64,000 nucleotides of DNA from a bacterium (GTDB taxonomy: Bacteria; RBG-13-61-14; DATKZS01): contig CAXXFL010000006.1 of NCBI GenBank assembly GCA_963674965.2, positions 608,001 to 672,000 on the forward strand. Reading direction: 5' to 3'. The translations under genes were made by a program, and so were the position numbers. How positions within the stretch are numbered: position 1 is the stretch's first letter; the number at the start of each line of letters is the position of its first letter. The notes under the pieces were generated by a model that did not search any database, was not told the origin of the DNA, and saw only the letters and a list, made by a program, of their open reading frames with translations. Shown here one piece after another: positions 2 to 63,224 of the stretch.

Positions 2-1477
2 CTTGGCAAGATCGAGGGCGTCCTTTTCCTTTTTCGCCGAGAACTCCTCCACCACCCCCATCAGCTCGTCTATCTTGTCAAAGGAAAATTCCCGCAGGTC
101 TATCTTGGAGGCGTCGCCCCCCGTAATCCCCGGCAGGATCGATTCCATCTTAAGGTTAAGGGCCTCGACGTCAGCGTCCGGCTTGGCGGGACCGGTATAT
201 TCCGCCAGCGTCTTTTGAAGGTCCATGCTCGTTCCATCGGGAACGTACTTCTGGGCGTCCTCTGGAAGCTCGACCGAGTCCATGTCCTTTTGGGCCCGGT
301 CCATGGCCTCCTGGATTTTCTCGTTGGCGAACTTCTCTATCCCCTCAGCCTTGGCGGAGATGTTTTTCTCCAGCTCGCTCTCCTCGCCGCCTTCCTGGCT
401 CATCTCCTGGAGAAGCTGCAAGGCCGTCTTATGCTCCGCCGGGATGAGGTCGCCCGTGACCAGGTTGTCCAGCATGGAGTCGTCGCTTTTTATCCGGAGT
501 TCAAGCGCCTTCAGGTAATGATCGTAAGTACGGCGCTCTCGCGACTTGTCCTCATAGCCGAGCAGGACGTGGCTGATCTTTTCCGCCTCGTCGTCCTCCA
601 CCTCGATGCCCTTGCGCCAGATCGTCAGCGCCATGAGCTTCTCCGGAAAGAACCAGAGGGTGTCGAGGTTCATCTCCAGCTCGACGAACTCGGGACAGCC
701 GCCGCTCGATTCCCGCTTTATGAAACAGCGAGGATAAAAAGGCGGCAGCCCGCCGCTTATCACCGGCAGTTCCGGATGCATGTTTAATATCTCGTAGGAC
801 TCGTCGCCTCGAAAGTATCCGTCAATCCACTGGTCCCTCGGCGCGCAGAGGAAATAGCGCCAGGAAAAGTCCTCGGGATAGCCGGGAAAGCACTTCTGCT
901 TGTAGGCGTCGTCGTATGTCCCCTGGTAGCGCCTCCGTTGCGGAAGAGAAGGCCCGAGTGGGGCCAGGCCGGCCGGCTCGGGCGTCTCGCCGGGGGAGGT
1001 CACCAGCTTGCGCGGGTCTTCCACCTGGGGAAGCCTTCCGTCACGATAGCCGATTCCATCCGGGTTCGCCTCGTACCCCTTGCCCCCGAAGGCGTGAGCG
1101 TAGTCGATGGGCGCGGACAATACCGCCTCGTGGCCCGCGGAAGTACCCATGTCCCACTTGCGGGGTCCGAAGACGTAGAGGTTTTTATCCTTCGACCCCA
1201 CCTTGATCCTGACCTCGCCGCCGGTCACCGCCTGCCCCCCCGGCGCGAAAAAGCTTCCCGAGACCAGGTATTCGCCGTTCGGCTTGGGCATGCCAGCGTC
1301 GGGCATGGCGGCCTCTCCCATCACCTCGAAGGAGTCCTTGATAAAATTGAAATCCAGGAGGGTCCCGCCGGTTTTAAGGTTTATTCCCAGCGTGGCCGAG
1401 GCGATAAAGTAAAACCTCCGGTTCTGCTCGAATACCCGGTGGAAAAAACCCACCTGAAGCGGTCGGTATATCTTCAT
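2..1477 (-). CDS. DUF2169 family type VI secretion adaptor protein (runs off left edge)
   Basis: Absent from the ORF track. Manual translation from ATG 1477 gives MKIYRPLQVGFFHRVFEQNRRFYF..PDAGMPKPNGEYLVSGSFFAPGG..AFGGKGYEANPDGIG..GTYDDAY..FPGYPEDFSWRYFLCAPRDQW..LDTLWFFPE, matching DUF2169 motifs. Lies 19 nt downstream of vgrG. Confidence 0.85.
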   Translation of the reverse strand, partial: MKIYRPLQVGFFHRVFEQNRRFYFIASATLGINLKTGGTLLDFNFIKDSFEVMGEAAMPDAGMPKPNGEYLVSGSFFAPGGQAVTGGEVRIKVGSKDKNLYVFGPRKWDMGTSAGHEAVLSAPIDYAHAFGGKGYEANPDGIGYRDGRLPQVEDPRKLVTSPGETPEPAGLAPLGPSLPQRRRYQGTYDDAYKQKCFPGYPEDFSWRYFLCAPRDQWIDGYFRGDESYEILNMHPELPVISGGLPPFYPRCFIKRESSGGCPEFVELEMNLDTLWFFPEKLMALTIWRKGIEVEDDEAEKISHVLLGYEDKSRERRTYDHYLKALELRIKSDDSMLDNLVTGDLIPAEHKTALQLLQEMSQEGGEESELEKNISAKAEGIEKFANEKIQEAMDRAQKDMDSVELPEDAQKYVPDGTSMDLQKTLAEYTGPAKPDADVEALNLKMESILPGITGGDASKIDLREFSFDKIDELMGVVEEFSAKKEKDALDLAK

Positions 1478-48583: not shown

Positions 48584-50557
48584 TTATTCCTTCACCGCAA
48601 ACCCCATTCGCCTCAGGACGGTTGCGCCCTGGGGGACGAGGGTGACTTGGCGGGCTTTGCCGCGGGCGTTTACCATCTCCCCCTCCAGGGCGACGGGAGG
48701 GTCGCGCCAGGGCAAGGCGCGTTCCTCGGGCGCCACGCGGGTGAACTCGAACTCGGCCTGATGGGGGACGCGGTATTCCCAGCCGGCTTGGTCGGTACAG
48801 GTGATGACCTTGTCGTAAAAACCGGAATCGCCATGCTCCCGGCCGTTTTCGACCTCGATAGGAAAGCGGAGCCCGTAGAGGAGAGGGCCGCGCTGGAAGC
48901 AGACGCCTTTCCTCCTTCCCTTCCATGAAACGAGGATGGGGACCTTGAGGACCTCGAGTTCCATCTTCAACCGCACCCGCTCGCCGGGGGACCAGGGTCG
49001 TTCAAGCTCGATAAAGCCGTCCCTCTCGGCGGTCCGCGTTCCCGGCGGGGTATCCAGCTTGAGTTCCCGGGCGAAGGCCGGCTTCCTGAGGAAGAGGGAG
49101 AACCGGGCGGCCTTTTCCGGCTCGATCTCGAAGAGTATCTCATCGGAGAAGGGGTAGGAGGTTTCCTCCTTGATCCTTACCTGTATTCCGTTAATTATCG
49201 TCTCCAGGACGCACGGCCCGTACATGCAGGCGGCCACTCCCTCGTCCTTCCACTTCATCCACATGCCCTCGACGTAATAAGGCATGAGCCTGCCCGCGTT
49301 GAGGGTGCAGCAGGCGGCGGCCGAGTGGGAGGGGCTGTATATCTGCCTTCCCAAATGGCCGTGGGGATTGATCTGCTCGCGGTTGTCGGACGTGAGGTAC
49401 GAACACGAGTCGAGCAGGGGGAACCTCGCCCCCTGGCCCCCGTTGAAGGTCATCTTCTCGACCAGGTCGAAGGCCTCGAGGGAATGGCCGTACTGCGCCA
49501 CCCTGTTCATGCCGATGGCCAGCTCGGTAATGCAGCAGTACTCGTAAAAGGAGTCGGCCGCTCCCGGCCTCCCGTTCACGTTCTCCGAGCTGACGAGGCA
49601 TCCGCTGGGGGTGAGGTGGCGGCGGAGCTTTCTGATGGCGTTATTCGCCGCGACCAGGAATTCCTCCTTGCCCGTCTCGCCGCCCAGGAAAAAGGGGACC
49701 ATGAAGTGCTCGCAAACGTGCGGCCCGTGGAGCATGAACCTGGTCCGGGCCTTGCGCAGCTTGCGAAGGGACATATCGTCGTTAAAGCGGCAATGGTCGA
49801 AATCCCGGTAGAGGAACTCGGCGTAGTTAAGGAAGTCCTCGTCCCGCGTCTTTCGATGCATCCACTCGAGTACGTCGCAAAAAGCCAGCCCGTGACTGAG
49901 GCCCCCGCTGTGGGTGGTGGGCCCGGCCGACTTGAAATATCCGCGGCCGGACGGATACTTGGACATGGTGAGACGGACGGCCCTGTCCACCGCCTCGAGG
50001 ACGTCCTTGTCCCCCGTGTACTCGTGATAGGCGAGCATGGCCACGAACAGGCGGCTCTGGGTCCAGAGTTCCCCATTCTCCCGCTTGTGGTTATAGCGGT
50101 TGTCGGGCGGGTAAATCCCGATGTATCCGTCGGGCGACTGGTACTCGAGGACCCGCTCCATCCATCCCCGGACCGTGTCCATATATTCCTTTTGCCGCGT
50201 CAGGAAAGCGGCCCGGGTGACGGCGTCCTTCCAGTAGCCCTCGTGCTCGCCGCTCCACCATGGCTTTTTGCCGGCGACGAAGAACTGGTCGCTCGATCTT
50301 TCCTTGTTGGCCCCGAACAGGTCCCGGTCAACGGTGTCGTTGATCTCGTCGTAATGCCCGGTAATGCCGTGGATGAGGTCGTTCTCGAGCTGCTCCCGAA
50401 TCCACCCGCCCGGGATGACCGACCCGGCGGGAGGTATTCTCAGTTCTCCGTCAAGGGCGGGGTGCGATTTTTTGCCCAACGCCGACCCGGCCGGCAGTGA
50501 GGCTACGGCCGCCGCGGTCAAGGTCCGGCCGAAACGGCGCCTGTCCATTTTTTCCAT
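48584..50557 (-). CDS. Tat-exported GH127-like beta-L-arabinofuranosidase
   Basis: MDRRRF twin-Arg signal, QSPDGYIG, YEYCCITE, ACCTLN, ETSYPFS, QRGPLLY. Confidence 0.8.
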   Translation of the reverse strand: MEKMDRRRFGRTLTAAAVASLPAGSALGKKSHPALDGELRIPPAGSVIPGGWIREQLENDLIHGITGHYDEINDTVDRDLFGANKERSSDQFFVAGKKPWWSGEHEGYWKDAVTRAAFLTRQKEYMDTVRGWMERVLEYQSPDGYIGIYPPDNRYNHKRENGELWTQSRLFVAMLAYHEYTGDKDVLEAVDRAVRLTMSKYPSGRGYFKSAGPTTHSGGLSHGLAFCDVLEWMHRKTRDEDFLNYAEFLYRDFDHCRFNDDMSLRKLRKARTRFMLHGPHVCEHFMVPFFLGGETGKEEFLVAANNAIRKLRRHLTPSGCLVSSENVNGRPGAADSFYEYCCITELAIGMNRVAQYGHSLEAFDLVEKMTFNGGQGARFPLLDSCSYLTSDNREQINPHGHLGRQIYSPSHSAAACCTLNAGRLMPYYVEGMWMKWKDEGVAACMYGPCVLETIINGIQVRIKEETSYPFSDEILFEIEPEKAARFSLFLRKPAFARELKLDTPPGTRTAERDGFIELERPWSPGERVRLKMELEVLKVPILVSWKGRRKGVCFQRGPLLYGLRFPIEVENGREHGDSGFYDKVITCTDQAGWEYRVPHQAEFEFTRVAPEERALPWRDPPVALEGEMVNARGKARQVTLVPQGATVLRRMGFAVKE

Positions 50558-50822
50558 CCAACACCTCCGGCTACAGTTTACCGGATATTGTAGCACGCGA
50601 GGAGTGCTTTTTCGGGGCGGACCCGCGACAACCGCCTTTCACCGCGAAAACGCCGCCGGCCGCGACGACAAGTTCCGCTACTTCCGGATCAACCCGCCCA
50701 GGTAGTACTATTCCTTGCCCCTGGATTCTCCGTTTTCCCAAAAACCCAGTATGAGTGCTCCCGCGAGGTCATCTTCGAAGCTTTGGTTTTCAAGCCTTCC
50801 AAGCTAAGATAATTTCGAGACG

Positions 50823-52076
50823 ATGGGACCACCAGGCAAATCCGGCCGCCTTCGCGAGGCGATCAAGGGCAACGTTCTAGCTCTCGGTCTCGTCAGTTTT
50901 TTCACCGACGTCTCGAGCGAGATGATCTACCCTCTCCTTCCCGTTTTCATGACCGGCCTGGTCTCCGCGTCCGCGGCCGCGATATACGTGGGCCTGATGG
51001 ACGGCGTGGCGGAGAGCGCCTCGAGTCTTCTCAAGATTTTCTCGGGCGGTCTGAGCGACCGCATGGGCAAGAGGAAGCCCCTGATAACGGCGGGATATTT
51101 AGTATCCGCGATCAGCCGCCCGCTTATGGCGCTTGCCGCGGCCGGGTGGCAGGTCATCGCCCTCCGGTTCATGGACCGCCTGGGCAAGGGCACGCGGACC
51201 TCGGCCAGGGACGCCCTTATAGCCGAGTGCACAAAGGAGGATTGCCGCGGCGTGGCCTTCAGCTTTCACCGCATGATGGACCACGCCGGCGCGGTGACGG
51301 GTCCTATCGCGGCGGCGGCTGTTCTGTACGCTTTTCTCGGTTACGGCTTGTGGCGCGGGCGCTCCTCGGCGGCTAGCGCGGAAGAGATGGAGGCCATGCG
51401 TATTCTCTTCGCATTGGCCCTCATTCCCGGCGCGGCGGCCATGGCGGCCATATTCTTGATGGTCAAGGAGACCGGGGGGGAAGAAGCCCCAGATGATGAT
51501 TCTCTCGAGGTCTTGGAGGCATCCTCGGCGAAGCCTTCTCGACGGTTTTATCATTACCTCCTGGCCGTGACCGTTTTCACCCTTGGCAACAGCTCGGACC
51601 TTTTTCTGGTGTTTCTCGGCCGAACGCGCTTCGACCTGGGCCTTGGCCAGACGCTTTTTCTCTGGCTCGGGCTTCACGTCTCTAAAATCATCTTCAGCCT
51701 GCCGGGCGGAAGGCTGGCCGACGACCGCGGACGAAAAACCGCCATCCTGGCGGGCTGGTCGATCTACGCCGCCGTTTACGCCGGGCTGGCTTTTTCCTCC
51801 AGCCTTTTCTCCTTCCTTGTCCTTGTCTTTATTTACGGGGCCTATTACGGAATGACCGAGGGCGCCGAGCGGGCCTTCGTGGCCGACCTGGTTCCCAGAA
51901 AACAACTGGGAAAAGCCTACGGACTCTACCACGGGGCCGTCGGCATAGCCGCCTTGCCCGCCAGCCTCGTGTTCGGACTTTTCTGGGCCAGCCTTGGCCC
52001 GACCGCGGCCTTCTCCATAGGAGCGGCCCTGGCCCTGGCCGCCTTTATTATCCTTGCCGCTTTAAGGCGGGCTTGA
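50823..52076 (+). CDS. MFS transporter
   Basis: GLVSFFTDVSSEMIYP, LSDRMGKRKP, DRLGKGTRTSARDALI. Confidence 0.9.
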   Translation: MGPPGKSGRLREAIKGNVLALGLVSFFTDVSSEMIYPLLPVFMTGLVSASAAAIYVGLMDGVAESASSLLKIFSGGLSDRMGKRKPLITAGYLVSAISRPLMALAAAGWQVIALRFMDRLGKGTRTSARDALIAECTKEDCRGVAFSFHRMMDHAGAVTGPIAAAAVLYAFLGYGLWRGRSSAASAEEMEAMRILFALALIPGAAAMAAIFLMVKETGGEEAPDDDSLEVLEASSAKPSRRFYHYLLAVTVFTLGNSSDLFLVFLGRTRFDLGLGQTLFLWLGLHVSKIIFSLPGGRLADDRGRKTAILAGWSIYAAVYAGLAFSSSLFSFLVLVFIYGAYYGMTEGAERAFVADLVPRKQLGKAYGLYHGAVGIAALPASLVFGLFWASLGPTAAFSIGAALALAAFIILAALRRA

Positions 52077-52475
52077 ACCTTCACTTCGATTCTTGCCGTT
52101 GTCCTCTTTGATTTTTTACCGAGGCCAGATACAAAGCATGGGAGTCAAAGTCGCTCGGGAATCCGTTCGGAACATTGGACGCGCGATGCATTATGAGCGT
52201 CCGGGCATTTACCCGAGACATGGTCATAACGTCCGTTATAATCATAACGGATAAAGCTTAAGCGCGGATATTTTGTCGCATTCTTGCATCCTTATTCACC
52301 TGGAGGAAATTGGCGGGCAAAGGGGGGATCAAAGATTTAATTCCTGCATATTACGTCGGCACGACTTACAGTTTATTATCCTTTTTATACGGTTATTTAC
52401 ATTATTTTCAAGTTGGTTTTAATTACTATATAGGTTAATACAATTATATTTTTCCAATAACCTATAAAAATATCC

Positions 52476-52504
52476 TTGACATCATTATCAAGTTGATGTA
52501 TATA
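52476..52504 (+). promoter_or_regulatory. Putative sigma70 promoter with overlapping inverted repeat
   Basis: TTGACA-17 nt-TATATA; ACATCA-N9-TGATGT at 52479-52499. Confidence 0.45.
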
Positions 52505-52796
52505 GATTATCAGTATCAGTAAAATATATCAAAATTTTATCAATTATAATCCATCTTAACAAAACCGCTATATAATTTCTTTGAATCTTTTATCGGTTAT
52601 CCGCGGCGGATACGGCAGAAGCGCTTTGGTTTAACGTCACACGCCCTGACACGCTATGAAAGTCTCCGGCTGGCCATGTTCGGAGGAAGGGAAGGTTGCG
52701 CCCCAAGGGCCTTGTAACAATCGACGTCGTCAACATGTAAATTGGAAAAAGACTTAGGAGCGATTTCACAAAACTCATGAAGAAAGGGGATTTATC

Positions 52797-53888
52797 ATGA
52801 AGAAACAAAAAGTCAGCAAGTATTTTTCTCTCGCGGCCCTGCTATTTTTGGCCGTAGTATTCTCGTCAGCCTGCGCGCCTCCGTTTTTCGTCAGTACCTC
52901 GGCTGAATCTCCCGTGGAAGTGGGACCCGGCGCGGCGTTTTTAGCCGGATTATTTGGCGACATGACCAGTAAGTATCAAGTTGACGGCACGATGAACCAA
53001 GGCGCGCAAAAAACGGGCGAAGATTTCTGCCTGTACATCGATATCGGAGGCAGCGGAGAGCGCGACCTATTGGTCTGGGACGGAACGGACTGGCAGAACG
53101 TGACCGACGACGACGACGCGGCTGAGGCCCTCGACGCGATCGTGGACAACGGATATATCCATTTCAAGCCCGACCTGGACCTCTCAAGCGTGTACATTTA
53201 CTGGGCCGATTACTCGACCTCGACTCCCGAACTCTGCATCGACGTCTCCGACATTGACGAGATCGCCGGCTACGAGGAAACCCTCTACACGGTCATAGTC
53301 GAAAGCAAGGACGCTAGCGACCATGATATCTGGAGAGTGGATACCGGCTCCAATAACTTTTACATGGCCCCGGATCGGAGGTTCTATTTCAGGGCCGGAA
53401 AAAACTCGGACACTTCCTTACCCGTGGTGAAAGACCTGAACTTCGAGTGCGACGACAGCGAAAGAGTAGATATAAATTTTTCCCCTCAAATCACCTTTGG
53501 CGAAACCATGGGAGCCCTGTACGCCTTTCTGGTGGATGAGAATGGAAAAGGTTTTACTCTCGCCAATTCAGGCCATTCGATTTCCAGCGGAGACCATACT
53601 TACTGGTGGGCCCTTCCCGCCGACAGAGATTTCAACCAGATACTGCTTGAATACGACACTCAATACAAGTTCGTCATTTGGGATAAAAACAACAGCACAA
53701 CCTTGGACCCGAGTCTCATTCCGCCAAACCTGCCGCTTTCCCAGGACATGAACGGGAACGTCATATACGATCAATACAACCTCCTCGAGGGCCCCATTGA
53801 TATTAACGACATTGATGGGCCGGAACACGACGATATCGGCATTCTCGTCTACTACCAGTGCTTCTATACTATAGAGGAGCCTGAGTAG
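52797..53888 (+). CDS. Acidic hypothetical lipoprotein
   Basis: MKKQK..AVVFSSAC lipobox; Asp-rich mature part. Confidence 0.7.
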   Translation: MKKQKVSKYFSLAALLFLAVVFSSACAPPFFVSTSAESPVEVGPGAAFLAGLFGDMTSKYQVDGTMNQGAQKTGEDFCLYIDIGGSGERDLLVWDGTDWQNVTDDDDAAEALDAIVDNGYIHFKPDLDLSSVYIYWADYSTSTPELCIDVSDIDEIAGYEETLYTVIVESKDASDHDIWRVDTGSNNFYMAPDRRFYFRAGKNSDTSLPVVKDLNFECDDSERVDINFSPQITFGETMGALYAFLVDENGKGFTLANSGHSISSGDHTYWWALPADRDFNQILLEYDTQYKFVIWDKNNSTTLDPSLIPPNLPLSQDMNGNVIYDQYNLLEGPIDINDIDGPEHDDIGILVYYQCFYTIEEPE

Positions 53889-53916: not shown

Positions 53917-53952
53917 GAAAGGGGCGGACCAAAGCGTTCGCCCCTTTCTTTC
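53917..53952 (+). terminator. Rho-independent terminator
   Basis: GAAAGGGGCGGAC-CAAAGC-GTTCGCCCCTTTC-TTT. Confidence 0.8.
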
Positions 53953-54076: not shown

Positions 54077-55402
54077 ATGGCCCTGAGAAATATTTTCAAG
54101 AAGAAGAAAAAAAACGCTTCCTTTGTCATCGGGCTTGACGGGGTACCCCACACCCTGGTGCAAAGGTTCGTCAAGGACGGGACCTGGCCCTTCATGGCCA
54201 AACTGGCCGAGGCGGGCTCCCTCCATAAAATGAAGGTGACCCTGCCCGAGATAAGCGCCGTGAGCTGGCCCAGCTTCATGACCGGCTCCAACCCCGGCGT
54301 TCACGGTATCTTCGGTTTTACCGAGCTTGACGGCGGCTACGGCATGCGCTTTACCAACTTCACCGACCTCAAGGCGCCGACCATTTGGGACAAGCTGGGG
54401 GAGAGAGGCAAAAAGAGCGTCGTAATCAACCAGCCCGGCACCTATCCGGCCCGGGACATCCCCGGGGTCCTTATCAGCGGCTTCGTGGCCATCGAGCTTC
54501 ACAAGTCCTTGAAGCCCCTCAAATACCTGGCCCTTCTCCGCCGCTTGAACTACGAGATCGACATTGACACCCAAAGGTGCAGGCGCGACCACAACCAGTT
54601 GTTTATCGAGCTTAATAAAACCCTGACAAGCAGGAGGAAAGTCATCGAGGAGCTGTGGAAGTCCGAGGAATGGGACTTCTTCCAGGCCGTGGTCACGGGC
54701 ACGGACCGGCTCCAGCATTACATCTTCAGCGCCATCGAGGACCCGGGCCACGAAAGACACGGCCAAGTCATGGACTACTATCGCAAGATAGACGACTTTA
54801 TCAAGGAAAACTGGGAGAGGCACAACTCGACCATCGACGTCAGCCGGGAGGGCGAGGGCTTCTTCCTCCTTTCCGACCACGGGTTCTGCGCCATCAAGAC
54901 CGAGGTTTACTTAAACGCGTGGCTTAAAGAACAAGGATACCTGGCGTTCGAGAACGACGACCCCAAAAGCATGGAAGATATCACCGCCGACTCGAGGGCC
55001 TTTGTCCTGGACCCGGGCCGCATATACCTCCACCTGGAGGGAAAGTATCCCAAGGGAAACGTCAAGGGGTCCGAGGCCGGCCCTCTTCTTAAGGAGCTGA
55101 AAGAAAAACTCCTTTCCCTGTGCTACGATAATAACGGGATACTCGAGGACGTGAAGACCAGGGAGGAGGCCTATTCGGGACCGGAGGCCGCGAACGGTCC
55201 CGACCTCGTGTGCGTTCCCAACCACGGCTACGACCTTAAAGCGGCCGTCGGAGCCAAGGAGGTCTTTTTCAGGACCGACCTGACGGGCATGCACACCTGG
55301 GACGACGCCTTCTTCTGGGCCCTTGACGACCACGGCCAGGACATGGAAATAACCCGGCTGGCCAATATTGTTACGAAACCTCTTGGGGTGGGGGAACTCT
55401 AA
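54077..55402 (+). CDS. AlkP-superfamily phosphodiesterase/nucleotide pyrophosphatase (COG3379-like), no signal peptide
   Basis: VIGLDG, PEISAVSWPSFMTG.NPG.HGIFGF, TDRLQH, SDHGF, GMH. Confidence 0.88.
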   Translation: MALRNIFKKKKKNASFVIGLDGVPHTLVQRFVKDGTWPFMAKLAEAGSLHKMKVTLPEISAVSWPSFMTGSNPGVHGIFGFTELDGGYGMRFTNFTDLKAPTIWDKLGERGKKSVVINQPGTYPARDIPGVLISGFVAIELHKSLKPLKYLALLRRLNYEIDIDTQRCRRDHNQLFIELNKTLTSRRKVIEELWKSEEWDFFQAVVTGTDRLQHYIFSAIEDPGHERHGQVMDYYRKIDDFIKENWERHNSTIDVSREGEGFFLLSDHGFCAIKTEVYLNAWLKEQGYLAFENDDPKSMEDITADSRAFVLDPGRIYLHLEGKYPKGNVKGSEAGPLLKELKEKLLSLCYDNNGILEDVKTREEAYSGPEAANGPDLVCVPNHGYDLKAAVGAKEVFFRTDLTGMHTWDDAFFWALDDHGQDMEITRLANIVTKPLGVGEL

Positions 55403-55484
55403 AATACTAAGGACTTTAGCGAGAAAGCCTTGAGCCCTCTCGCGAGGAAGCTAATATCATTCGGCATTAATAGGGGAGATAGGT

Positions 55485-57719
55485 TTGCCTTCCAAATTCT
55501 TATTTTATAGGCCGAGATTTATCCTGGCCGCGCTGGTATTGCTAGCGGTCCTTTTCCAGGCCTCTTTGGCCGGCGCCTATATCGGACCAGGGGCCGGGTT
55601 TGCCGTGGTCGGGTCCTTCATGGCCTTTTTCTTTGCCTTTTTATCGGCCCTTCTTTCCATGCTGGTATGGCCGGCTCGGGCGCTTTACATTTTTATCCGG
55701 CGCAAACTTCTCAAGCTACGGCCCCAGGTCAAAAGGGTAATAGTCCTGGGCCTTGACGGCCTGGACCCCAGGACCGTGCATAAGATGTTCCAGGAAGACA
55801 AGCTGCCTAACCTGAAAAAGCTGAAAGAAGAAGGATACTTCAGGCCCCTGAAAAGCACGACCCCATCCATCTCCCCCGTGGCCTGGTCGACCTTCATGAC
55901 CGGAGTCAATCCGGGAAAGCACGCCATCTTCGACTTTTTGGCCCCGGACAGAAAAGCCTATCTCCCGGTCCTCAGTTCCTCCAAGATCGGCAACGTGGAA
56001 AGGACAGTGAAAATCGGCAAGTACGTCATCCCCCTGGGAAGCCCCGAGATAAGGCTCCTCAGAAAAAGCGCGCCCTTTTGGAAAATACTGGGGGACAACT
56101 TTATCTTCTCCCAGATTCTGAGGGTCCCCATTACCTTCCCGCCCGAGAAACATTACGGGACCAACCTGGCCGCCATGTGCGTGCCCGACCTTCGAGGCTC
56201 CCAGGGCAGCTTCACCTATTTCACCAGCGCCAAGGGCGAGAACGCCAGACATACCGGCGGCATCCAGGTCACCCTCGAGTCCGACGGCAACGGGGGCTTT
56301 GTCTGCGACCTGCCCGGCCCGGATAACCCTCTGGTTCCCGGCGTTGGCGAGATGAAGATTCCCCTCAAGCTGAAAAAGGAAAAGGACGACTGGAAGCTGA
56401 TCCTTCCCGACGCCGAGGTCGCCCTGGCCAAGGACAAATATACGGACTACGTCGATCTCACGTTCAAAGCGGGCCTGGGAGTGGCGGCCAGGGGCATCGG
56501 GCGCTTTCGGCTGCTGGCGACCGAGCCGGACCTCGAGCTGTACCTTACGCCCATCAACATCGATCCCAGAAGCCCGGCCATGCCCATATCTCATCCGTCC
56601 TTTTTCTCCAGCTATATCGCCAAGCTGCAAGGTCCCTACGCTACCCTGGGGCTCAACGAGGACACCTGGAGCCTGAACGAAAGGGTACTCGAGGAAGGCG
56701 CTTTCCTCGAACAGGTATGGGACATACATGAGGAACGGGAAAAGATGTTCCTCCGCGCCATCGACACCACCAGCAAGGGATGCGTGGTATGCGTGTTCGA
56801 CGCAACTGACCGCGTCCAGCATATGTTCATGCGCTACGAGCACCCGGACCACCCGGCCAACGCGGGCAAGGACACGCAAAAGTACAAGAACGCCATACCG
56901 GAGCTTTACGAAAGGGCCGACGAGCTGGTGGGCAAGGTCATGGCGAAAAGGAGAAAGGGCGACGTCCTGATCGTGATGAGCGATCACGGGTTTACCAGCT
57001 TCAAGCGGGGCATGAACCTTAACTCGTGGCTGTGGAAGGAAGGATACCTGGCCACCAGGGACGGAAAGCCCTCGGGCGAGCTTTACGAGAACGTGGACTG
57101 GGAAAATACGCGGGCCTACGCTCTGGGCCTGGCCGGAATGTTCCTCAACCTGAAAGGCCGGGAGGCCAGGGGCGTGGTGGAAAAGGACGAGGCCCAGGCC
57201 CTTAGGGCCGAGATAGCGGCCAAGCTCGAGGGGATCGAGGACAAGGAAGGCGGCGGCGTGGCCATCGAGAAGGTCCACCTGTCGGGCGACGCCTACTGGG
57301 GGCCCTACGCCGGGCAGGGGCCCGACCTGGTCCCCGGCTTCCGGCCGGGATGGCGGGTAAGCTGGGACGGGGCCATGGGCGTGGTCAACGACGTGGTCTT
57401 CGAGGACAACTTAAAGGCCTGGAGCGGCGACCACTGCGTGGACGAGAGGTTCGTGCCCGGAGTGCTCTTCTGCGACCGCGACCTCGAGTGCAAGACCCCC
57501 TGGATAGGGGACGTGGCCCCCACTATCCTCGAGTGGTTCGGAGTGCCCATCCCGGCCCATATGGACGGCAAGTCGCTTCTTCATCCTCGCCATGAAGAAA
57601 CAAAGTCCGACAGTATAAAAGAAAAAGCGGGGGAAAACCTCGAAATAAATCAAGACAACGGAGAAGACGCGCCCGCGGCCGCCATATCGAGCGCGTCAAT
57701 AAAAGACGAGGCCATCTAA
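55485..57719 (+). CDS. COG3379-like phosphodiesterase with N-terminal signal, AYIGPGAG motif and TM anchor
   Basis: TTG start with GGGGAG RBS; VLGLDG, PSISPVAWSTFMTG, TDRVQH, SDHGF, WSGDHC. Confidence 0.88.
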   Translation: MPSKFLFYRPRFILAALVLLAVLFQASLAGAYIGPGAGFAVVGSFMAFFFAFLSALLSMLVWPARALYIFIRRKLLKLRPQVKRVIVLGLDGLDPRTVHKMFQEDKLPNLKKLKEEGYFRPLKSTTPSISPVAWSTFMTGVNPGKHAIFDFLAPDRKAYLPVLSSSKIGNVERTVKIGKYVIPLGSPEIRLLRKSAPFWKILGDNFIFSQILRVPITFPPEKHYGTNLAAMCVPDLRGSQGSFTYFTSAKGENARHTGGIQVTLESDGNGGFVCDLPGPDNPLVPGVGEMKIPLKLKKEKDDWKLILPDAEVALAKDKYTDYVDLTFKAGLGVAARGIGRFRLLATEPDLELYLTPINIDPRSPAMPISHPSFFSSYIAKLQGPYATLGLNEDTWSLNERVLEEGAFLEQVWDIHEEREKMFLRAIDTTSKGCVVCVFDATDRVQHMFMRYEHPDHPANAGKDTQKYKNAIPELYERADELVGKVMAKRRKGDVLIVMSDHGFTSFKRGMNLNSWLWKEGYLATRDGKPSGELYENVDWENTRAYALGLAGMFLNLKGREARGVVEKDEAQALRAEIAAKLEGIEDKEGGGVAIEKVHLSGDAYWGPYAGQGPDLVPGFRPGWRVSWDGAMGVVNDVVFEDNLKAWSGDHCVDERFVPGVLFCDRDLECKTPWIGDVAPTILEWFGVPIPAHMDGKSLLHPRHEETKSDSIKEKAGENLEINQDNGEDAPAAAISSASIKDEAI

Positions 57720-57736
57720 TAAAAGAGGTATTTATC

Positions 57737-59803
57737 ATGTCCAATAAAAAAAGCTTCTCCTCATTTGGCCGCTTTATCCCGCCTCCGGCGTTCGTGATGG
57801 CAGGCCTTCTGCTGGCCCTGTCGCTGGTCGCCTCGTGCGGGACCAAGACCAAACCCACGGGCAAGAAGGTATTGATCGTGGGCATCGACGGCATGGACCC
57901 CCGCTTGGTGGACGAGTTCATGAGCCGTGGACTTCTGCCCAACTTCGAGAAGCTCATGAGCATGGGCGACTTTAAGCCCCTTACCAGCTCGATCCCGCCT
58001 CAAAGCCCCGTGGCCTGGGCCAACTTCATTACCGGCACCAACCCGGGAAAGCACGGAATATTCGATTTCATCCACAGGGACCCGGACACTTATATGCCCT
58101 ACCTCTCCACCAGCAAGACCGAGGGCGCCCCGGAGGACGACTCGATCGCGCTGGGAAAACGCGTGATCTGGCTAAAGGGAGGCGTGGCCGAGAACAAGGT
58201 CGCGGGCACGCCCTTCTGGGAATACCTGGCCGAGAACGGCATATGGGAGCGCGTGTTTAAGATACCCTCGAACTTCCCGCCCGCCGGGGGCGTGGGATGG
58301 TCCGGCTCGGGCATGGGCACTCCCGACATCCTTGGCACCTACGGCACCTTCACCTATTTCACCGACAACCCGCCCGAGCACCCGGACTCGATCGGCGGCG
58401 GCACCATCACTCCCGTGTACATGGTCGAGGAAAACGTGTTCAGGACCAAGTTCGTTGGTCCCACCAACACCTGGGCCCTCGACGAGAAAAGACCATATCT
58501 GGGAGGCGATAAAAGGAACTACGCCGACTCCGAGGTCCCCCTTACCATCTACGTGGACCCCGAGAACCCGGCCGTCAAGATCGAGTTCCAGGATAATGAG
58601 CTGGTCCTCAGTCAGGGCGAATGGAGCGGATGGCTACCCATCAAGTTCGACATGTTCCCCCCCTTCCTCGGCGCCAGGGGAATAGTCAGGTTCTACCTCA
58701 AAGAGGTCAGGCCCGACTTCAAGCTCTACGCCAGCCCCATTAACATGGACCCCCTCGAGCCACCCATGCCCGTCACCAACCCGCCCGAGTACGCGGTCGA
58801 GGTGGCCGAGAACTGCGGCTACTACTACACCCAGGGCATGCCCGAGGACACCAAGGCCAGGCAGGCGGACCTCGACATACTCAACGACGGAGAACTCTTC
58901 CAGCAGATGATGCTGATCCATGATGAAGATAAAAAGATATTCAAGTGGCACCTGGACCAGTTCAAGGACGGACTGCTCTATTATTATTTCGGCTCTCTCG
59001 ATCTTGGCACTCACATGTTCTGGCGGCTTCACGACCCGAGCCACCCGGCTTATGACCCCAAGTGGGCTAAAAAAATGGGGGACCCCGTCGAGAAGCTCTA
59101 CGTCATGATGGACAAGATCATAGGGACGGCCCTGGAGAGGACCGGACCCAACGACGTCCTGATAGTGATGAGCGATCACGGCTTCGCCTCCTGGGACAAG
59201 ACCTTCCAGGTCAACTCCTGGCTGCTCGAGAACGGATACCTTCGGCTCGAAAAGGGCGTGGACCGGGAAAAGGTCGCCTATTTCAGGGACCTCGATTCCG
59301 GCAAGTTCGGCGTCGACTGGTCCCGTACCATGGCCTACGGCATGGGAATCAACGGGGTGTACATAAACAAGCTGGGAAGAGAAGCCTACGGCGCCGTCTC
59401 GCCCGTCGAGTATCGAGAGTACGTGGACGAGATAGCCGAAAAACTCATGGACTACGTGGACCCGGCAACGGGAGAGAAGCCCATACTGGTGGCAGCCAAA
59501 AGCTACGAGACCTATAAGGGAGACGGCCTCGAACACGCGCCCGACATAGTACTGGGATTCAAACGCGGATACAGGGGTGGAGACGAGAGCGCCCTGGGCA
59601 AGTTCCCCAAGGAAATCGTAAGCCTAAATAAAAGCTCATGGTCGGGCGACCATTGCGTGGCCACCAGGGAAGTCCCGGGAATTATCGTGACCAACCAAAA
59701 GATAAGGAAACAAGACCCCGCCCTTATTGACGTGGGTCCCACGGTGCTGTCCATATTCGGGATTGAAAAACCCGCGCAAATGGACGGAGAGCCGCTTTTC
59801 TAA
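57737..59803 (+). CDS. COG3379-like phosphodiesterase, lipoprotein
   Basis: LVASC lipobox; VGIDG, PQSPVAWANFITG, SDHGF, WSGDHC. Confidence 0.88.
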   Translation: MSNKKSFSSFGRFIPPPAFVMAGLLLALSLVASCGTKTKPTGKKVLIVGIDGMDPRLVDEFMSRGLLPNFEKLMSMGDFKPLTSSIPPQSPVAWANFITGTNPGKHGIFDFIHRDPDTYMPYLSTSKTEGAPEDDSIALGKRVIWLKGGVAENKVAGTPFWEYLAENGIWERVFKIPSNFPPAGGVGWSGSGMGTPDILGTYGTFTYFTDNPPEHPDSIGGGTITPVYMVEENVFRTKFVGPTNTWALDEKRPYLGGDKRNYADSEVPLTIYVDPENPAVKIEFQDNELVLSQGEWSGWLPIKFDMFPPFLGARGIVRFYLKEVRPDFKLYASPINMDPLEPPMPVTNPPEYAVEVAENCGYYYTQGMPEDTKARQADLDILNDGELFQQMMLIHDEDKKIFKWHLDQFKDGLLYYYFGSLDLGTHMFWRLHDPSHPAYDPKWAKKMGDPVEKLYVMMDKIIGTALERTGPNDVLIVMSDHGFASWDKTFQVNSWLLENGYLRLEKGVDREKVAYFRDLDSGKFGVDWSRTMAYGMGINGVYINKLGREAYGAVSPVEYREYVDEIAEKLMDYVDPATGEKPILVAAKSYETYKGDGLEHAPDIVLGFKRGYRGGDESALGKFPKEIVSLNKSSWSGDHCVATREVPGIIVTNQKIRKQDPALIDVGPTVLSIFGIEKPAQMDGEPLF

Positions 59804-59827
59804 GGCGGGAACAAAGGGGAGGTATTA

Positions 59828-60013
59828 ATGCCTAAGGTAAAGATTTCCAAGGAGCTTTTCGCTCGGGTCAAGAAGTTCGCCGGCATGGCGGGCTACAGCT
59901 CGGTGGACGAGTTTGTCTCTCACGCCCTCGAGAAGGAAGTGAGCCAGCTCGAGGGGGCCGACTCGGAGGAAGAGATCAAGAAGAAGCTGCAAGGACTGGG
60001 TTATATTTCCTGA
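59828..60013 (+). CDS. Small ribbon-helix-helix (CopG-like) protein with C-terminal LxxLGY motif
   Basis: GGGGAGG RBS; KVKISKELFARVKK..GYSSVDEFVSHALE; EEEIKKKLQGLGYIS. Confidence 0.75.
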   Translation: MPKVKISKELFARVKKFAGMAGYSSVDEFVSHALEKEVSQLEGADSEEEIKKKLQGLGYIS

Positions 60014-60022
60014 GGTCACCAG

Positions 60023-60892
60023 ATGGTAAACCTTTACGTCATGATCAACCGGCTGATCGACTCCCTCATGGGTCCCCTCGAGGGAGTCAGCCCGATATGG
60101 CCCCTGGCCATCTGGTCCATTGTCGTGGGCGTCGTGGCCATGATTATTTACAAGTACACCTCCAAGCAGGACGGCATCAAGGACGCCAAGGACAAGATCA
60201 AGGGCCATTTCTACGAGGTCTGGCTCTATATCGACGACGCGCCGGTTATCGCCAAGGCCCAGCTCAAGGTCATGTTTAACGCCTTCCGGTACATGGCCTA
60301 CGCGGCCCCTCCCCTGGCCATCATGATCGTCCTGTTCTTTCCTCTTTTCGCCAACCTCGAGACCCGCTACGCCATGAAGCCGGTCCCCGTGGGTGACGAG
60401 ACCCTGGTCAAGCTGCGCCTGGCCCGGGAGTTCGACGGGTGGCAAAACCAGGTCAAGCTCGACCTTCCGCCCGGCGTCGAGCTGGTGGGAAACCCCGTCA
60501 GGTTTTCCCGCCGCGTGTTCGAGTCGGACTCGAGCAAAAAGGTCGTCCGCGTGGACCATGAGGTCAACTACAAGCTGAAGGCGACCGAACCGGGCCGCCA
60601 CGACCTGGCCTTTACGGTCAAGGGCAAATCCTTCACCGTGCCCTTCCTGGCCGGACCGGACTACGGCAAAAGGGCCACGCCCCTGGCGGCGACCACCAGC
60701 CTGGGAGAGGCCCTGCTTTTCCCGCCAACCGCCAAGGTCCCGGCCGAGGCCGACGTCGAGCGGGTCGAGATCAAGTACCCCGAGGCCGACTTCCCCTTCC
60801 TGGGATGGAACGCCTGGTGGATATGGCCGTTCCTTATAATCTCGATGATCGCGGCCTACGCCGTCAAGGGCGTCTTCAAGGTCGAGATATAA
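60023..60892 (+). CDS. EMC3/TMCO1 (DUF106, Oxa1-superfamily)-like membrane protein with soluble beta-rich insert
   Basis: TM1-YKYTSKQ-amphipathic helices-RYM..PLAIMIVLFFP (TM2)-~140-aa insert-FLGW..WW.W.FLIIS (TM3)-KGVFKV. Confidence 0.6.
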   Translation: MVNLYVMINRLIDSLMGPLEGVSPIWPLAIWSIVVGVVAMIIYKYTSKQDGIKDAKDKIKGHFYEVWLYIDDAPVIAKAQLKVMFNAFRYMAYAAPPLAIMIVLFFPLFANLETRYAMKPVPVGDETLVKLRLAREFDGWQNQVKLDLPPGVELVGNPVRFSRRVFESDSSKKVVRVDHEVNYKLKATEPGRHDLAFTVKGKSFTVPFLAGPDYGKRATPLAATTSLGEALLFPPTAKVPAEADVERVEIKYPEADFPFLGWNAWWIWPFLIISMIAAYAVKGVFKVEI

Positions 60893-60928
60893 TTCGCCAA
60901 AGCCGGCGATAAGGCCCCTCGGACAAAA

Positions 60929-60966
60929 AAATCGCGCCCGGACCTTTTCCGCCCGGACGCGATTTC
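60929..60966. terminator. Bidirectional hairpin between convergent genes
   Basis: AAATCGCG.CCGG..CCGG.CGCGATTT. Confidence 0.55.
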
Positions 60967-60979
60967 GCGTTTTAAGATT

Positions 60980-61450
60980 TTACTCGGCCTTGATCACGAA
61001 GGTCTTGGCGATCTTATCGTGCCAGCCCTGGTTGTTGGCGTCAATGAATATCCAGATGAAGCCGAGATATATTACAAGGCTAGAAACGGCGTATCCCACC
61101 AGTCTCAATATAGCGTCAACCGGACCCAGGTCCGCGCCGTCCGCTTTAATCGCCTTGATCTTCATCACCTTCTTGCCGAACGTCTGTCCCCTCCCCGTAA
61201 GCGGATTGTCCATGCCTACAAGGTAAATAAAGTAGCCGATCACAACGACAAGATTCAGAAGGCTTGCAACAAGCGCCAAAATGCCGCTTATTTTACCAAG
61301 GATAGCCCCGAGTATCCCGAAAACGATCCCTATCACGAAAAGGATACCCCAATCGATAAGGAAAGCGATAAACCTTGGTCCGTAATCCGCCAATTGTCCG
61401 GGTACGCCCGCTCCCGCCGCCGGCTGTCCGCCAGGAACCTGTTCCGTCAT
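60980..61450 (-). CDS. RDD family membrane protein
   Basis: RFIAFLID, GQTFGKKVMKIK, QGWHDKIAKTFV. Confidence 0.92.
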   Translation of the reverse strand: MTEQVPGGQPAAGAGVPGQLADYGPRFIAFLIDWGILFVIGIVFGILGAILGKISGILALVASLLNLVVVIGYFIYLVGMDNPLTGRGQTFGKKVMKIKAIKADGADLGPVDAILRLVGYAVSSLVIYLGFIWIFIDANNQGWHDKIAKTFVIKAE

Positions 61451-61583
61451 TTTCTCCTCCTTTTCATTGTTACCTTTTTAATCCATAGAACCGAAAGCGG
61501 CAAAGGCCGCTTGTGAACGCCCGTGTTATGAGAATAATACAACGCCGCGCTCGGATGTCAAGAGCGCCATGAAAACCTAATAT

Positions 61584-63224
61584 TTATTCCACCTCCTCCC
61601 TGGCCTTATTTGGGCCCGCGTTCCTCACGAAAACGCTGGCCCGCAGACCCTCGAGGTCGGGCCATATTCTCCCGTAAAATGACGACCCGAAACTGGTTCC
61701 CACCCACCGGTCCTTTTCCGTGTAGCCCAGTCCGCCCAGCCTCAGCTCGAGATAGGTCTTCCTCATCCGCGCCACCTTTGCATTATCCATCAGCTCGGGG
61801 TTGTCCTTGTAGGCGTTGTAATAGGCCTGATGGATCATGATCCGGTCCGCGTCCCTGGCCGCCAGGGTCTCCCGCGAGAGAGCGAACTGGGGCAGGAACT
61901 CCATGGTCCAGTTTATCTCCGGGTTAGGATAATAGGGCACAAAAGCCAGGTCCTTTTCGCCCGGCTCGTGGGAAAGGGCCATGGCCGCCGTGGGCGCCCG
62001 AAGGATGTAGTCCTCCAGCTTCGTAAACCCGTGGAACAAAAATAGGTTATAGGCCGCCGCGGCGCCCACGACGATTACCGCTCCCGCCCTCTTCAAGCGG
62101 GACTCGGCCCTCAGCCAGGGCTCGAGAAGAAGCGCCGCCAGAAGCGCGAAAAAAGGAGCGGCCGAGGCGTACAAATGGGGAACGCCCAACTCGCTCATGA
62201 AAATCATGAAGAGCAGGAACCCGGCCGGGTAGCTGAAAAAGAGGAGCCGTCGCCAATCTTTTAAATTCAGGCGAAACCATGCCCCCAATAGGGCCATTAA
62301 GCAAACGGGCGCTCCCATGGCCAGGGGCAGGGCTGAGGAAAACTGGAACAGCACCGGCTTTTGCCACCAAAGCTCGGGGGACCGCCGAAAAAGCGGGTTC
62401 AGCTTGTTCTGGAGGGCCCACTCGATGGGCGCCTGGCGAAGCGCCCCGTGCCAGTCGATAAAGGTCCACGGTGACAGGAGCATGAACGTCCCCATCGCGC
62501 CCAGGCCCACGATCAGCCAGCTATAGAGCTCGTCTTTGCCCGTCTCCTTTTTCCAGTGGCGCCTGGCCAGTATGATCAAGAAGGGCGCGGCCGCGACGGC
62601 GTGGTACTTCGCGGCCAGGGCAAAGCCGATGGAGACGCCGGCCAGGACGTAGTCCCTTATTGCTCCCCGGTCCACGATCCTGAGCGCGGCGTGGGTCGCG
62701 GCCAGGGCCGCGATGGCCACCAGGGGATCGTTCTTGATGAGGTTGGTGGTAAAGAGGAAAGTCGGGGTGGTGGCGCATAAAAAGGTCGCCGCCAGGGCCG
62801 CTCCCTCCCCGAACTCCCGCCGGGCGACGAGGTAAAGGAGCCACAAGGCCAATGCCCCGAGGATGGCGCCAAGGAGCCGCCCGAAAACGATGGTCTCCTC
62901 AAAGGGGAAGTGATAATGCCGAATGTGCCACTTGAAGGAGTCGAAGCTCTCGAAGCCGGGAAGGGCCGAAAAGTTGGCCGCCGCGTAAACGAGGCCGTAA
63001 GCCCCGGCCGTCAGGGTGAACTCGAGTTGCGGATACTTGTGCGTGCCGGGGCTGACGCTCAGGTTCTGGAGCATCTCGAGGGCCCCGTCCCTTACCCACC
63101 TCTCGTCCTCCACGCAGTATTGGGGCAGGAAAAGGCCGATGGACAAGGCGCGGTCCAAAAGGAAAAAGGCGATTATGGCCAGGGCCGGCGCCCATTGGCC
63201 CGGTGTTTTCCACCTGAGTTTCAT
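61584..63224 (-). CDS. GT-C fold (GT39/ArnT-like) lipid-carrier-dependent glycosyltransferase
   Basis: Acidic EDE after TM1, GRLLGAILG, KNDP, GFALAAKY; multi-TM. Confidence 0.78.
   Translation of the reverse strand: MKLRWKTPGQWAPALAIIAFFLLDRALSIGLFLPQYCVEDERWVRDGALEMLQNLSVSPGTHKYPQLEFTLTAGAYGLVYAAANFSALPGFESFDSFKWHIRHYHFPFEETIVFGRLLGAILGALALWLLYLVARREFGEGAALAATFLCATTPTFLFTTNLIKNDPLVAIAALAATHAALRIVDRGAIRDYVLAGVSIGFALAAKYHAVAAAPFLIILARRHWKKETGKDELYSWLIVGLGAMGTFMLLSPWTFIDWHGALRQAPIEWALQNKLNPLFRRSPELWWQKPVLFQFSSALPLAMGAPVCLMALLGAWFRLNLKDWRRLLFFSYPAGFLLFMIFMSELGVPHLYASAAPFFALLAALLLEPWLRAESRLKRAGAVIVVGAAAAYNLFLFHGFTKLEDYILRAPTAAMALSHEPGEKDLAFVPYYPNPEINWTMEFLPQFALSRETLAARDADRIMIHQAYYNAYKDNPELMDNAKVARMRKTYLELRLGGLGYTEKDRWVGTSFGSSFYGRIWPDLEGLRASVFVRNAGPNKAREEVE

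Follow-up and report, generated by a model that had tools for sequence, protein, structure and literature searches.

LtaS, EptA and OpgB are transferases of the alkaline phosphatase (AlkP) superfamily that decorate envelope polymers, and in these proteins a multi-transmembrane domain is fused to an extracytoplasmic PF00884 domain. A link between AlkP-superfamily proteins and sulfation is described in Halobacterium salinarum, where, according to the accessible text of one report, N-glycan sulfation was affected by deleting either of the sulfatase-like proteins Agl30 and Agl31 (PMC11980604). The Oxa1-superfamily proteins that have been described are protein insertases according to the available part of one source (PMC5868721), and in the available parts of that source and another, DUF106 is treated as a family of archaea and eukaryotes (PMC5868721, PMC8887752). 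In the present study, we analyzed a bacterial locus at positions 54077-60892 of a DNA stretch of 64,000 nucleotides from contig CAXXFL010000006.1 (the whole stretch is called the window). The locus encodes three AlkP-superfamily enzymes, a protein of 61 residues and an Oxa1-type membrane protein in the order PDE1-PDE2-PDE3-small-memb. The five open reading frames (ORFs) have the same direction and are spaced by 82, 17, 24 and 9 nt, exactly as given in the original prediction, which was made from the DNA letters. Our analysis indicated that this cassette is one copy of a widespread, uncharacterized bacterial membrane module, with PDE1, a fourth paralog named PDE0 and an adenosine 5'-phosphosulfate (APS) kinase as frequent add-ons. 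In agreement with the earlier statement that no characterization was known, the literature searched (subscription-only papers and supplements lay outside its scope) described neither the cassette nor a bacterial DUF106 family, nor the C-terminal LGY tail reported below. The cassette would resemble the LtaS/EptA/OpgB group in placing AlkP-fold enzymes at the membrane to act on anionic substituents. It differs from the LtaS/EptA type in that no protein with a fused multi-transmembrane and PF00884 architecture is encoded; the enzymes are separate PF01663 proteins, one of which has a catalytic domain predicted to face the cytoplasm.

To evaluate the conservation of the cassette, we compared loci anchored on memb. 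The six loci from species genomes showed the same gene order. Complete five-gene sets were present in L001, L002 and L004, while L003 was cut inside PDE1 and L005 started at PDE2. The locus from Planctomycetota (L006) contained PDE2-PDE3-small-memb, without PDE1 in the 5 kb upstream. In the host phylum, memb was found in 12 of 13 species genomes, and in the only genome without it (G011) the contig ended in PDE1. A further 80 metagenome loci were anchored on a distant memb subfamily (~28% identity) and scanned with a narrower alignment (A3). Among the metagenome loci that reached far enough upstream of memb, small was directly adjacent in 68/70, PDE3 was present in 39/40, PDE2 in 27/28 and PDE1 in 15/25; L057 and L071 were the exceptions to the gene order. 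Based on the genome and metagenome counts, PDE2-PDE3-small-memb is the constant core, and PDE1 is an accessory member. The neighbourhood check proposed with the original prediction thus found the genes together elsewhere and in the same order, Planctomycetota included.

The three enzymes all matched PF01663 above the Pfam cut-off, with E-values of 2e-37 (PDE1), 8e-31 (PDE2) and 2e-31 (PDE3). The NCBIfam models returned PhnA matches only, which were far below threshold; PDE2 additionally gave a marginal SGSH_C match in Pfam, and a PF00884 sulfatase-type domain was found in none of PDE1-3. The proteins of the window were then aligned with their orthologs from related loci, giving 17 PDE1, 27 PDE2 and 38 PDE3 sequences in all. 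The metal ligands D51, D422, H426, D480, H481 and H639 (PDE3 numbering) were invariant in 17/17 PDE1, 27/27 PDE2 and 38/38 PDE3. The nucleophile was Ser in the aligned PDE1-3, except for Thr in 6 of the 38 PDE3 sequences, and the auxiliary D638 (PDE3 numbering) was replaced by Met in PDE1. These results bore out the claim of three AlkP-superfamily paralogs that keep the metal ligands and a Ser nucleophile. The alignment also revealed a beta-rich insert that is common to PDE2 and PDE3 and missing from PDE1. The AlphaFold2 (AF2) model of PDE3, with a predicted local distance difference test (pLDDT) score of 92.3, showed an AlkP core with an all-beta stretch at residues ~205-332, so that the large shared insert noted at the outset was seen in both the alignment and the model. 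The nearest solved folds of PDE3 in Foldseek were PhnA (1ei6), the Xac nucleotide pyrophosphatase/phosphodiesterase (NPP) of Xanthomonas (2gsn/7n1s), PafA (5tj3) and ENPP1/3, with E-values of ~1e-9 to 1e-8, and a sequence search of PDB chains with the enzymes gave no match. The PDEs are like these NPPs in their AlkP core, PF01663 domain, two-metal set and Ser/Thr nucleophile. They differ in sequence (10-12% identity), in the ~140-aa beta insert of PDE2 and PDE3, and in the predicted presence of paralogs on both sides of the membrane within one operon. Proteins of the PDE3 type (~660-690 aa) numbered at least 6897; they are named merely 'alkaline phosphatase family protein' or the like, and their source names included Aminicenantia, Schekmanbacteria, Thermodesulfobacteriota and Acidobacteria.

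The enzymes were distinguished by their N-termini. None of the 17 PDE1 sequences contained a hydrophobic or membrane segment, and PDE1 is predicted to be a soluble cytoplasmic enzyme. In PDE2, a signal-like hydrophobic segment, mostly ending in an AxA-type site, was followed by a second hydrophobic segment, and the motif Y[IV]GPGAGF stood between the two segments in 27/27 sequences. Just past the second segment, a stretch of 25 residues contained on average 7.8 K/R versus 0.6 D/E. Because of this K/R-rich stretch and the positive-inside rule, the catalytic domain of PDE2 is predicted to lie at the cytoplasmic face, whether or not the first segment is cleaved, and to be held there by an N-terminal two-segment anchor. 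The PDE3 of the window has the lipobox VASC with Cys34. Of 38 unique PDE3 sequences (37 orthologs and that of the window), 25 showed a Tat-type RR signal and 13 a lipobox or Sec-type signal; since such signals occur throughout the orthologs, PDE3 is taken to be exported. Three targeting types had originally been proposed. The absence of a signal in PDE1 and the lipoprotein nature of PDE3 stood, but the description of PDE2 as carrying a signal plus a membrane anchor, which implied an external enzyme, did not fit the cytoplasmic catalytic domain predicted here. The proposed trans-envelope placement was retained, as the predicted locations of the enzymes include both sides of the inner membrane, with PDE1 and PDE2 inside and PDE3 outside.

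The AF2 model of memb (pLDDT 88.5) consisted of an N-terminal helix, a first transmembrane (TM) helix, a helical hairpin, TM2, a beta domain of ~145 aa and TM3. The modelled helices comprised residues 25-46, 49-68, 73-116 and 267-285, and the beta strands lay within residues 126-264. Hydrophobic segments were found at residues 25-43, 91-109 and 267-285, with 9 K/R in residues 44-92. From the model and the hydrophobic segments, the core of memb is predicted to have three TMs, with a helical hairpin on the cytosolic side linking TM1 to TM2, and an N-out/C-in orientation. A word search with memb gave 31 matches. A profile search of 1.84 billion representatives gave 2568 matches at E<=1e-3 (628 of them at E<=1e-30), most of them ~274 aa long; the 2568 are cluster representatives at 50% identity. 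Against the archaeal protein MJ0480 (5c8j), the close-family profile A1 yielded an E-value of 0.042, and the broader profile A2 (51 sequences) yielded 8.3e-8 across TM1, the hairpin and TM2, together with a second, weak match at TM3. One relative of memb, P0158 (E 5e-64 to A1), scored 28.6 bits with PF01956 EMC3_TMCO1 against a cut-off of 27.1, and two other relatives were sub-threshold. In addition, one relative was labelled 'DUF106 family' by its source, and one Atlas cluster had PF01956 in 17% of its members. By these profile comparisons, the memb family is homologous to the DUF106/EMC3/TMCO1 branch of the Oxa1 superfamily, and the Oxa1-superfamily-like protein of the original prediction was supported through both the match to MJ0480 and the passing score of P0158. 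The structural searches were less specific. The longest memb alignment in a VIA structural search was to chain 8 of the multipass-translocon structure 7tut, which we take to be TMCO1 (136 residues spanning 18..289, Z 7.9, root-mean-square deviation 4.5), with a Z tied with generic helical matches; Oxa1-type chains were not distinguished by Z. Foldseek with the whole model returned beta-domain look-alikes only, which were weak (best E 2.4e-3; PmoB-type and Ig-like domains).

The memb protein is like MJ0480/Ylp1 and EMC3/TMCO1/Get1 (PF01956) in its three-TM core, its K/R-rich TM1-TM2 hairpin and its predicted N-out/C-in orientation. It differs from the MJ0480/Ylp1 branch, as far as the available texts describe that branch, in being bacterial and in having a beta-sandwich of ~145 aa between TM2 and TM3. 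A further difference is that memb is encoded in an enzyme operon, with an ordinary YidC encoded elsewhere in the source genome. Because of this ordinary YidC, memb would be an extra, specialized copy.

The small protein was the best-conserved part of the cassette, with 57-74% identity in most loci (43-74% overall), compared with 41-53% for the enzymes and 24-35% for memb. In an alignment of 34 sequences, G22, Y23, S25, E28, F29, L54, G56, L57, G58 and Y59 were invariant, and all orthologs ended in L-x-G-L-G-Y-[IL]-x. The LGY ending was therefore as predicted, the 61-aa protein of the window terminating in LGYIS. The ribbon-helix-helix (RHH) fold that had been proposed for small was not borne out by any family model: comparison with the Pfam and NCBIfam models gave no match and no RHH model. 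Its single line of support was the automatic name 'CopG family' regulator of Atlas clusters of 61-63 aa look-alikes; in the nearest Pfam-bearing Atlas cluster, RHH_1 occurred in 27% of members at a score of 0.85, which serves as a lead only. Judged by sequence features, small is probably RHH-like. No conserved repeat or operator was found when the 200-nt stretches upstream of PDE1 were compared among four host-phylum loci (46% column identity). A complex prediction for memb and small (alignments A2 and A5) scored 0.01; it was run without controls and is evidence neither way. We also considered fused forms of small, for which there were 19 candidates. The five that were inspected were rejected as frameshift or assembly artefacts, because small kept its own start behind an out-of-frame or truncated PDE3.

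The LGY tail was not confined to small. A six-frame scan of the source genome for the C-terminal pattern gave 10 matches, 7 of them in real proteins, namely small, an APS kinase and five of the ~24 PF00884 (sulfatase-family) proteins. Three of these five had long N-terminal membrane regions. In L103, L104 and L106, Thr and His were found where sulfatases have the Cys/Ser-x-P-x-Arg signature, and this replacement suggests that their chemistry may be transferase-like rather than that of a sulfatase. Tailed proteins also occurred in and around the cassette in other loci. LGY-tailed sulfatase-family genes flanked it in L022 and L077, and in L050 an LGY-tailed ORF of 630 aa stood between small and memb. 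L057 (116-10828) was the only locus in which memb occurred without PDEs; small was missing in front of memb as well, and the four tandem ORFs of ~650 aa directly upstream all ended in ...KLKALGYI[QE]. The PDE3 orthologs of L037, L053 and L074 contained an internal L-x-S-LGYV motif just past the lipobox, which places the LGY motif on the exported side too. An ORF of ~139 aa upstream of the APS kinase of L006 (L006:254-670) ended in ...KRKLKNLGYL and could represent a further small protein with an LGY tail.

The APS kinase connected the cassette enzymes with sulfate activation. In the source genome, its gene lies 18 nt after PDE0, a fourth PF01663 paralog with a Thr nucleophile and no signal. 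PDE0 is taken to be soluble and cytoplasmic like PDE1, and translation probably begins at its Met of residue 79. The kinase has a 50-aa extension ending in ...KQRLKDLGYI. In all 13 genomes of the host phylum, the APS kinase followed PDE0 and ended in ...LGYI. In three of them (G001, G002 and G011), PDE1 came directly after the APS kinase, so that the pair abutted the cassette in the array PDE0-APSK-PDE1-PDE2-PDE3-small-memb, and the same seven-gene array was found in the metagenome locus L054. An ATP sulfurylase was also encoded in the source genome. The enzymes of the cassette are linked by genome position to sulfate activation. The earlier interpretation had assumed a phospho-substituent; because of the recurrent link to an LGY-tailed APS kinase, chemistry related to sulfate or to 3'-phosphoadenosine 5'-phosphosulfate (PAPS) seems at least as likely. 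Collectively, the original observation was confirmed, and its interpretation was partly supported.

The explanation that we tentatively favour, at somewhat less than an even chance, is a two-sided, PAPS-linked processing or transfer of an anionic envelope substituent, in which memb inserts and holds PDE2 and the LGY tail is a docking tag. The analysis established the gene content, the homologies, a conserved order of the genes, active sites that are intact, a predicted sidedness and the link to the APS kinase. A physical complex, the substrate, the direction in which the chemistry runs and what memb and small do are inferred, as follows. The group handled would be an anionic ester, sulfate or phosphate-containing, that is derived from, or coupled to, PAPS metabolism, and its target may be an envelope lipid or glycan. 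The steps would be divided among the cytoplasm, the inner leaflet and the periplasm. The memb protein would most likely insert and hold the procoat-like hairpin of PDE2 and organize the enzymes. The LGY tail would bring small, the APS kinase and some sulfatase-family enzymes to one site. A membrane-binding, MinD-like amphipathic element was also considered for the tail, but the strict conservation of LGY favours specific recognition.

Several results weighed against this explanation. PF01663 enzymes with such an active site are typically phosphodiesterases. The APS kinase was adjacent in a minority of loci (6/86; 861 kb in all), and in the source genome it lies with PDE0 on a separate contig. 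That genome also encodes canonical PAPS-dependent sulfotransferases (PF13469, three; PF00685, two); PAPS is therefore also used elsewhere, and the AlkP enzymes do not have to act as sulfotransferases. The flanks beyond the cassette were variable, including rhamnosidase, PPDK-like, RNase R, OmpH, aminotransferase and other genes (80 of the 131 listed neighbour ORFs were scanned), and they pointed to no pathway. The memb of the window alone had no Pfam or NCBIfam match and did not reach PF01956, and a PF01956 search of its own genome missed it. Finally, the Agl30/Agl31 precedent is of the PF00884 type, while the cassette enzymes belong to PF01663.

Other explanations were compared with the same evidence. 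The cassette could serve ordinary phosphoester turnover, with the enzymes as hydrolases for organophosphates, nucleotides, 3'-phosphoadenosine 5'-phosphate or PAPS, memb as a private insertase for the PDE2 hairpin and small as a regulator. The nearest solved folds (PhnA, Xac NPP, PafA and the ENPPs) are indeed hydrolases, PF01663 is the NPP family, and YidC-like insertases classically act on hairpins whose outside loop is very short. We nevertheless regard ordinary turnover as unlikely, for it does not explain why there are two to three copies in the cytoplasm, why four genes keep a strict order in distant lineages, why the tail is held in common with the APS kinase, or why, beside YidC, another Oxa1-type protein is maintained that is dedicated and has a periplasmic domain. 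The regulatory part of this idea can be taken alone: small may be a CopG/RHH-type repressor of the operon rather than a structural component, with the tail used for ligand sensing or oligomerization. The automatic names of its look-alike clusters, with the RHH_1 cluster as a lead only, and a sequence pattern that fits the RHH layout (a short, basic strand at the N-terminus, then a helix, G-Y-S-S and another helix) speak for a repressor; the lack of an RHH model match and of a conserved repeat upstream of PDE1 in four loci, a tail shared with enzymes, and a conservation above that of the enzymes and memb, which is unusual for a regulator, make it quite improbable.

Two further possibilities would assign memb a part in a relay. 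A lipid-carrier relay, in which PDE0, PDE1 and PDE2 load a sulfuryl or phospho-group at the inner leaflet, the hydrophilic memb groove scrambles the carrier across the membrane and PDE3 transfers the group to an extracytoplasmic acceptor, would agree with paralogs that have intact sites on both membrane faces, with memb as the sole polytopic membrane protein of the core, and with the linkage of a cytoplasmic donor-forming enzyme, the APS kinase, to an exported paralog. Lipid scrambling is possible for Oxa1-family proteins. We consider this relay distinctly unlikely, as no lipid-carrier synthesis gene was kept beside the cassette among the neighbour ORFs scanned and the Oxa1-superfamily members in the available part of PMC5868721 are described as protein insertases. 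A trans-membrane group relay is likewise hardly probable; here cytoplasmic AlkP enzymes would take a sulfuryl group from PAPS or a phosphoryl group, the hairpin-anchored PDE2 would load it onto a carrier in the membrane, a memb diverted from protein insertion would pass it on and PDE3 would deliver it to an acceptor in the envelope, with LGY as an address tag that gathers small, the APS kinase and the sulfatase-family enzymes. The enzymes might instead be strict AlkP-fold sulfotransferases that form a Ser/Thr-sulfo-enzyme intermediate from PAPS, like haloarchaeal Agl30 (VNG1056C) and Agl31 (VNG1057C). The APS-kinase linkage is consistent with this, and a genetic precedent is given in the available text on the two archaeal proteins (PMC11980604), which are AlkP-superfamily proteins with a genetic tie to sulfation in place of canonical sulfotransferases; the cassette compares with them through its APS-kinase linkage. 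PAPS would be unavailable to the exported PDE3, however, Agl30/31 belong to the PF00884 sulfatase branch, and canonical sulfotransferases are present in the source genome, which makes this the very doubtful end of the range. The archaeal pair further differs in lying in an N-glycosylation cluster, and the accessible text reports no DUF106-like or LGY protein alongside it (PMC11980604).

The coordinates of the cassette, its edges and the other LGY-tailed proteins of the source genome are listed in the table. The claim that the operon is bounded by terminators stood in part: hairpins were seen by eye at both edges, but both were missing from a consensus terminator scan, whose 14 sites did not exceed the shuffle mean of 12.2. 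The ORF of 363 aa that precedes the operon (52797-53888) matched no Pfam or NCBIfam family and had no counterpart in related loci.

Features of the cassette and related loci (positions in the window unless a contig or locus is named)
Feature	Position	Strand	Remarks
PDE1	54077..55402	+	441 aa; ATG start with GGGAGA ahead
PDE2	55485..57719	+	744 aa; TTG start with GGGGAGA ahead
PDE2 N-terminus, residues 1-71	55485..55697	+	signal-like segment, AxA-type site, YIGPGAGF turn, second hydrophobic segment
PDE3	57737..59803	+	688 aa; predicted exported PF01663 enzyme, lipoprotein in source genome
PDE3 beta-rich insert, residues ~205-346	58349..58774	+	from alignment and PDE3 model
small	59828..60013	+	61 aa; acidic linker, C-terminal L-x-G-L-G-Y tail
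LGY tail of small, residues 54-61 (LQGLGYIS)	59987..60010	+	
memb	60023..60892	+	289 aa; DUF106/EMC3/TMCO1-type Oxa1-superfamily membrane protein
memb beta-sandwich, residues ~120-264	60380..60814	+	predicted periplasmic; AF2 model
Upstream terminator-like GC hairpin with T-run	~53919..53950	+	after the 363-aa ORF, at the upstream edge of the operon; by eye
Downstream hairpin between A-run and T-run	~60923..60975	.	between the convergent memb and RDD genes; by eye; probable bidirectional terminator
LGY-tailed PF00884 protein, L102	C1:360570-361913		
LGY-tailed PF00884 protein, L103	C3:334066-336180		
LGY-tailed PF00884 protein, L104	C5:754271-756337		
LGY-tailed PF00884 protein, L105	C6:581288-582940		
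LGY-tailed PF00884 protein, L106	C6:186601-188754		
PDE0 and APS kinase pair	G000 contig C7:89465-91698 (L108:7465-9699)		

The surroundings of the operon in the window were also inspected. A patch of lower G+C at 52000-53500 (0.44-0.50, compared with ~0.55-0.62 in the surroundings) spans an intergenic region together with the beginning of the 363-aa ORF. Farther upstream, positions 48584-52076 encode a GH127-like beta-L-arabinofuranosidase-family protein on the minus strand and an MFS transporter, neither of which is a conserved neighbour of the cassette. Two genes on the minus strand (60980-63224) converge on the operon; one (60980-61450) encodes an RDD-family membrane protein, the other (61584-63224) a PMT_2/ArnT-like GT-C glycosyltransferase. 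A weak PMT-like match was observed downstream in L004, and the RDD and GT-C pair was not generally kept beside the cassette.

Should the module function as a unit, it would represent a widespread envelope pathway without a described counterpart, and the size of its families is indicated by the memb cluster representatives (2568) and the PDE3-type proteins (at least 6897). Under the same condition, memb would belong to a large bacterial branch of DUF106/EMC3/TMCO1 that is coupled with enzymes instead of general protein biogenesis. Such a branch bears on the evolution of insertases and on what else an insertase groove can handle. The LGY tail could be a short docking signal of a new kind, and the APS-kinase link may provide a route to understanding how bacteria add sulfate or other anionic groups outside the cytoplasm, where PAPS is unavailable.

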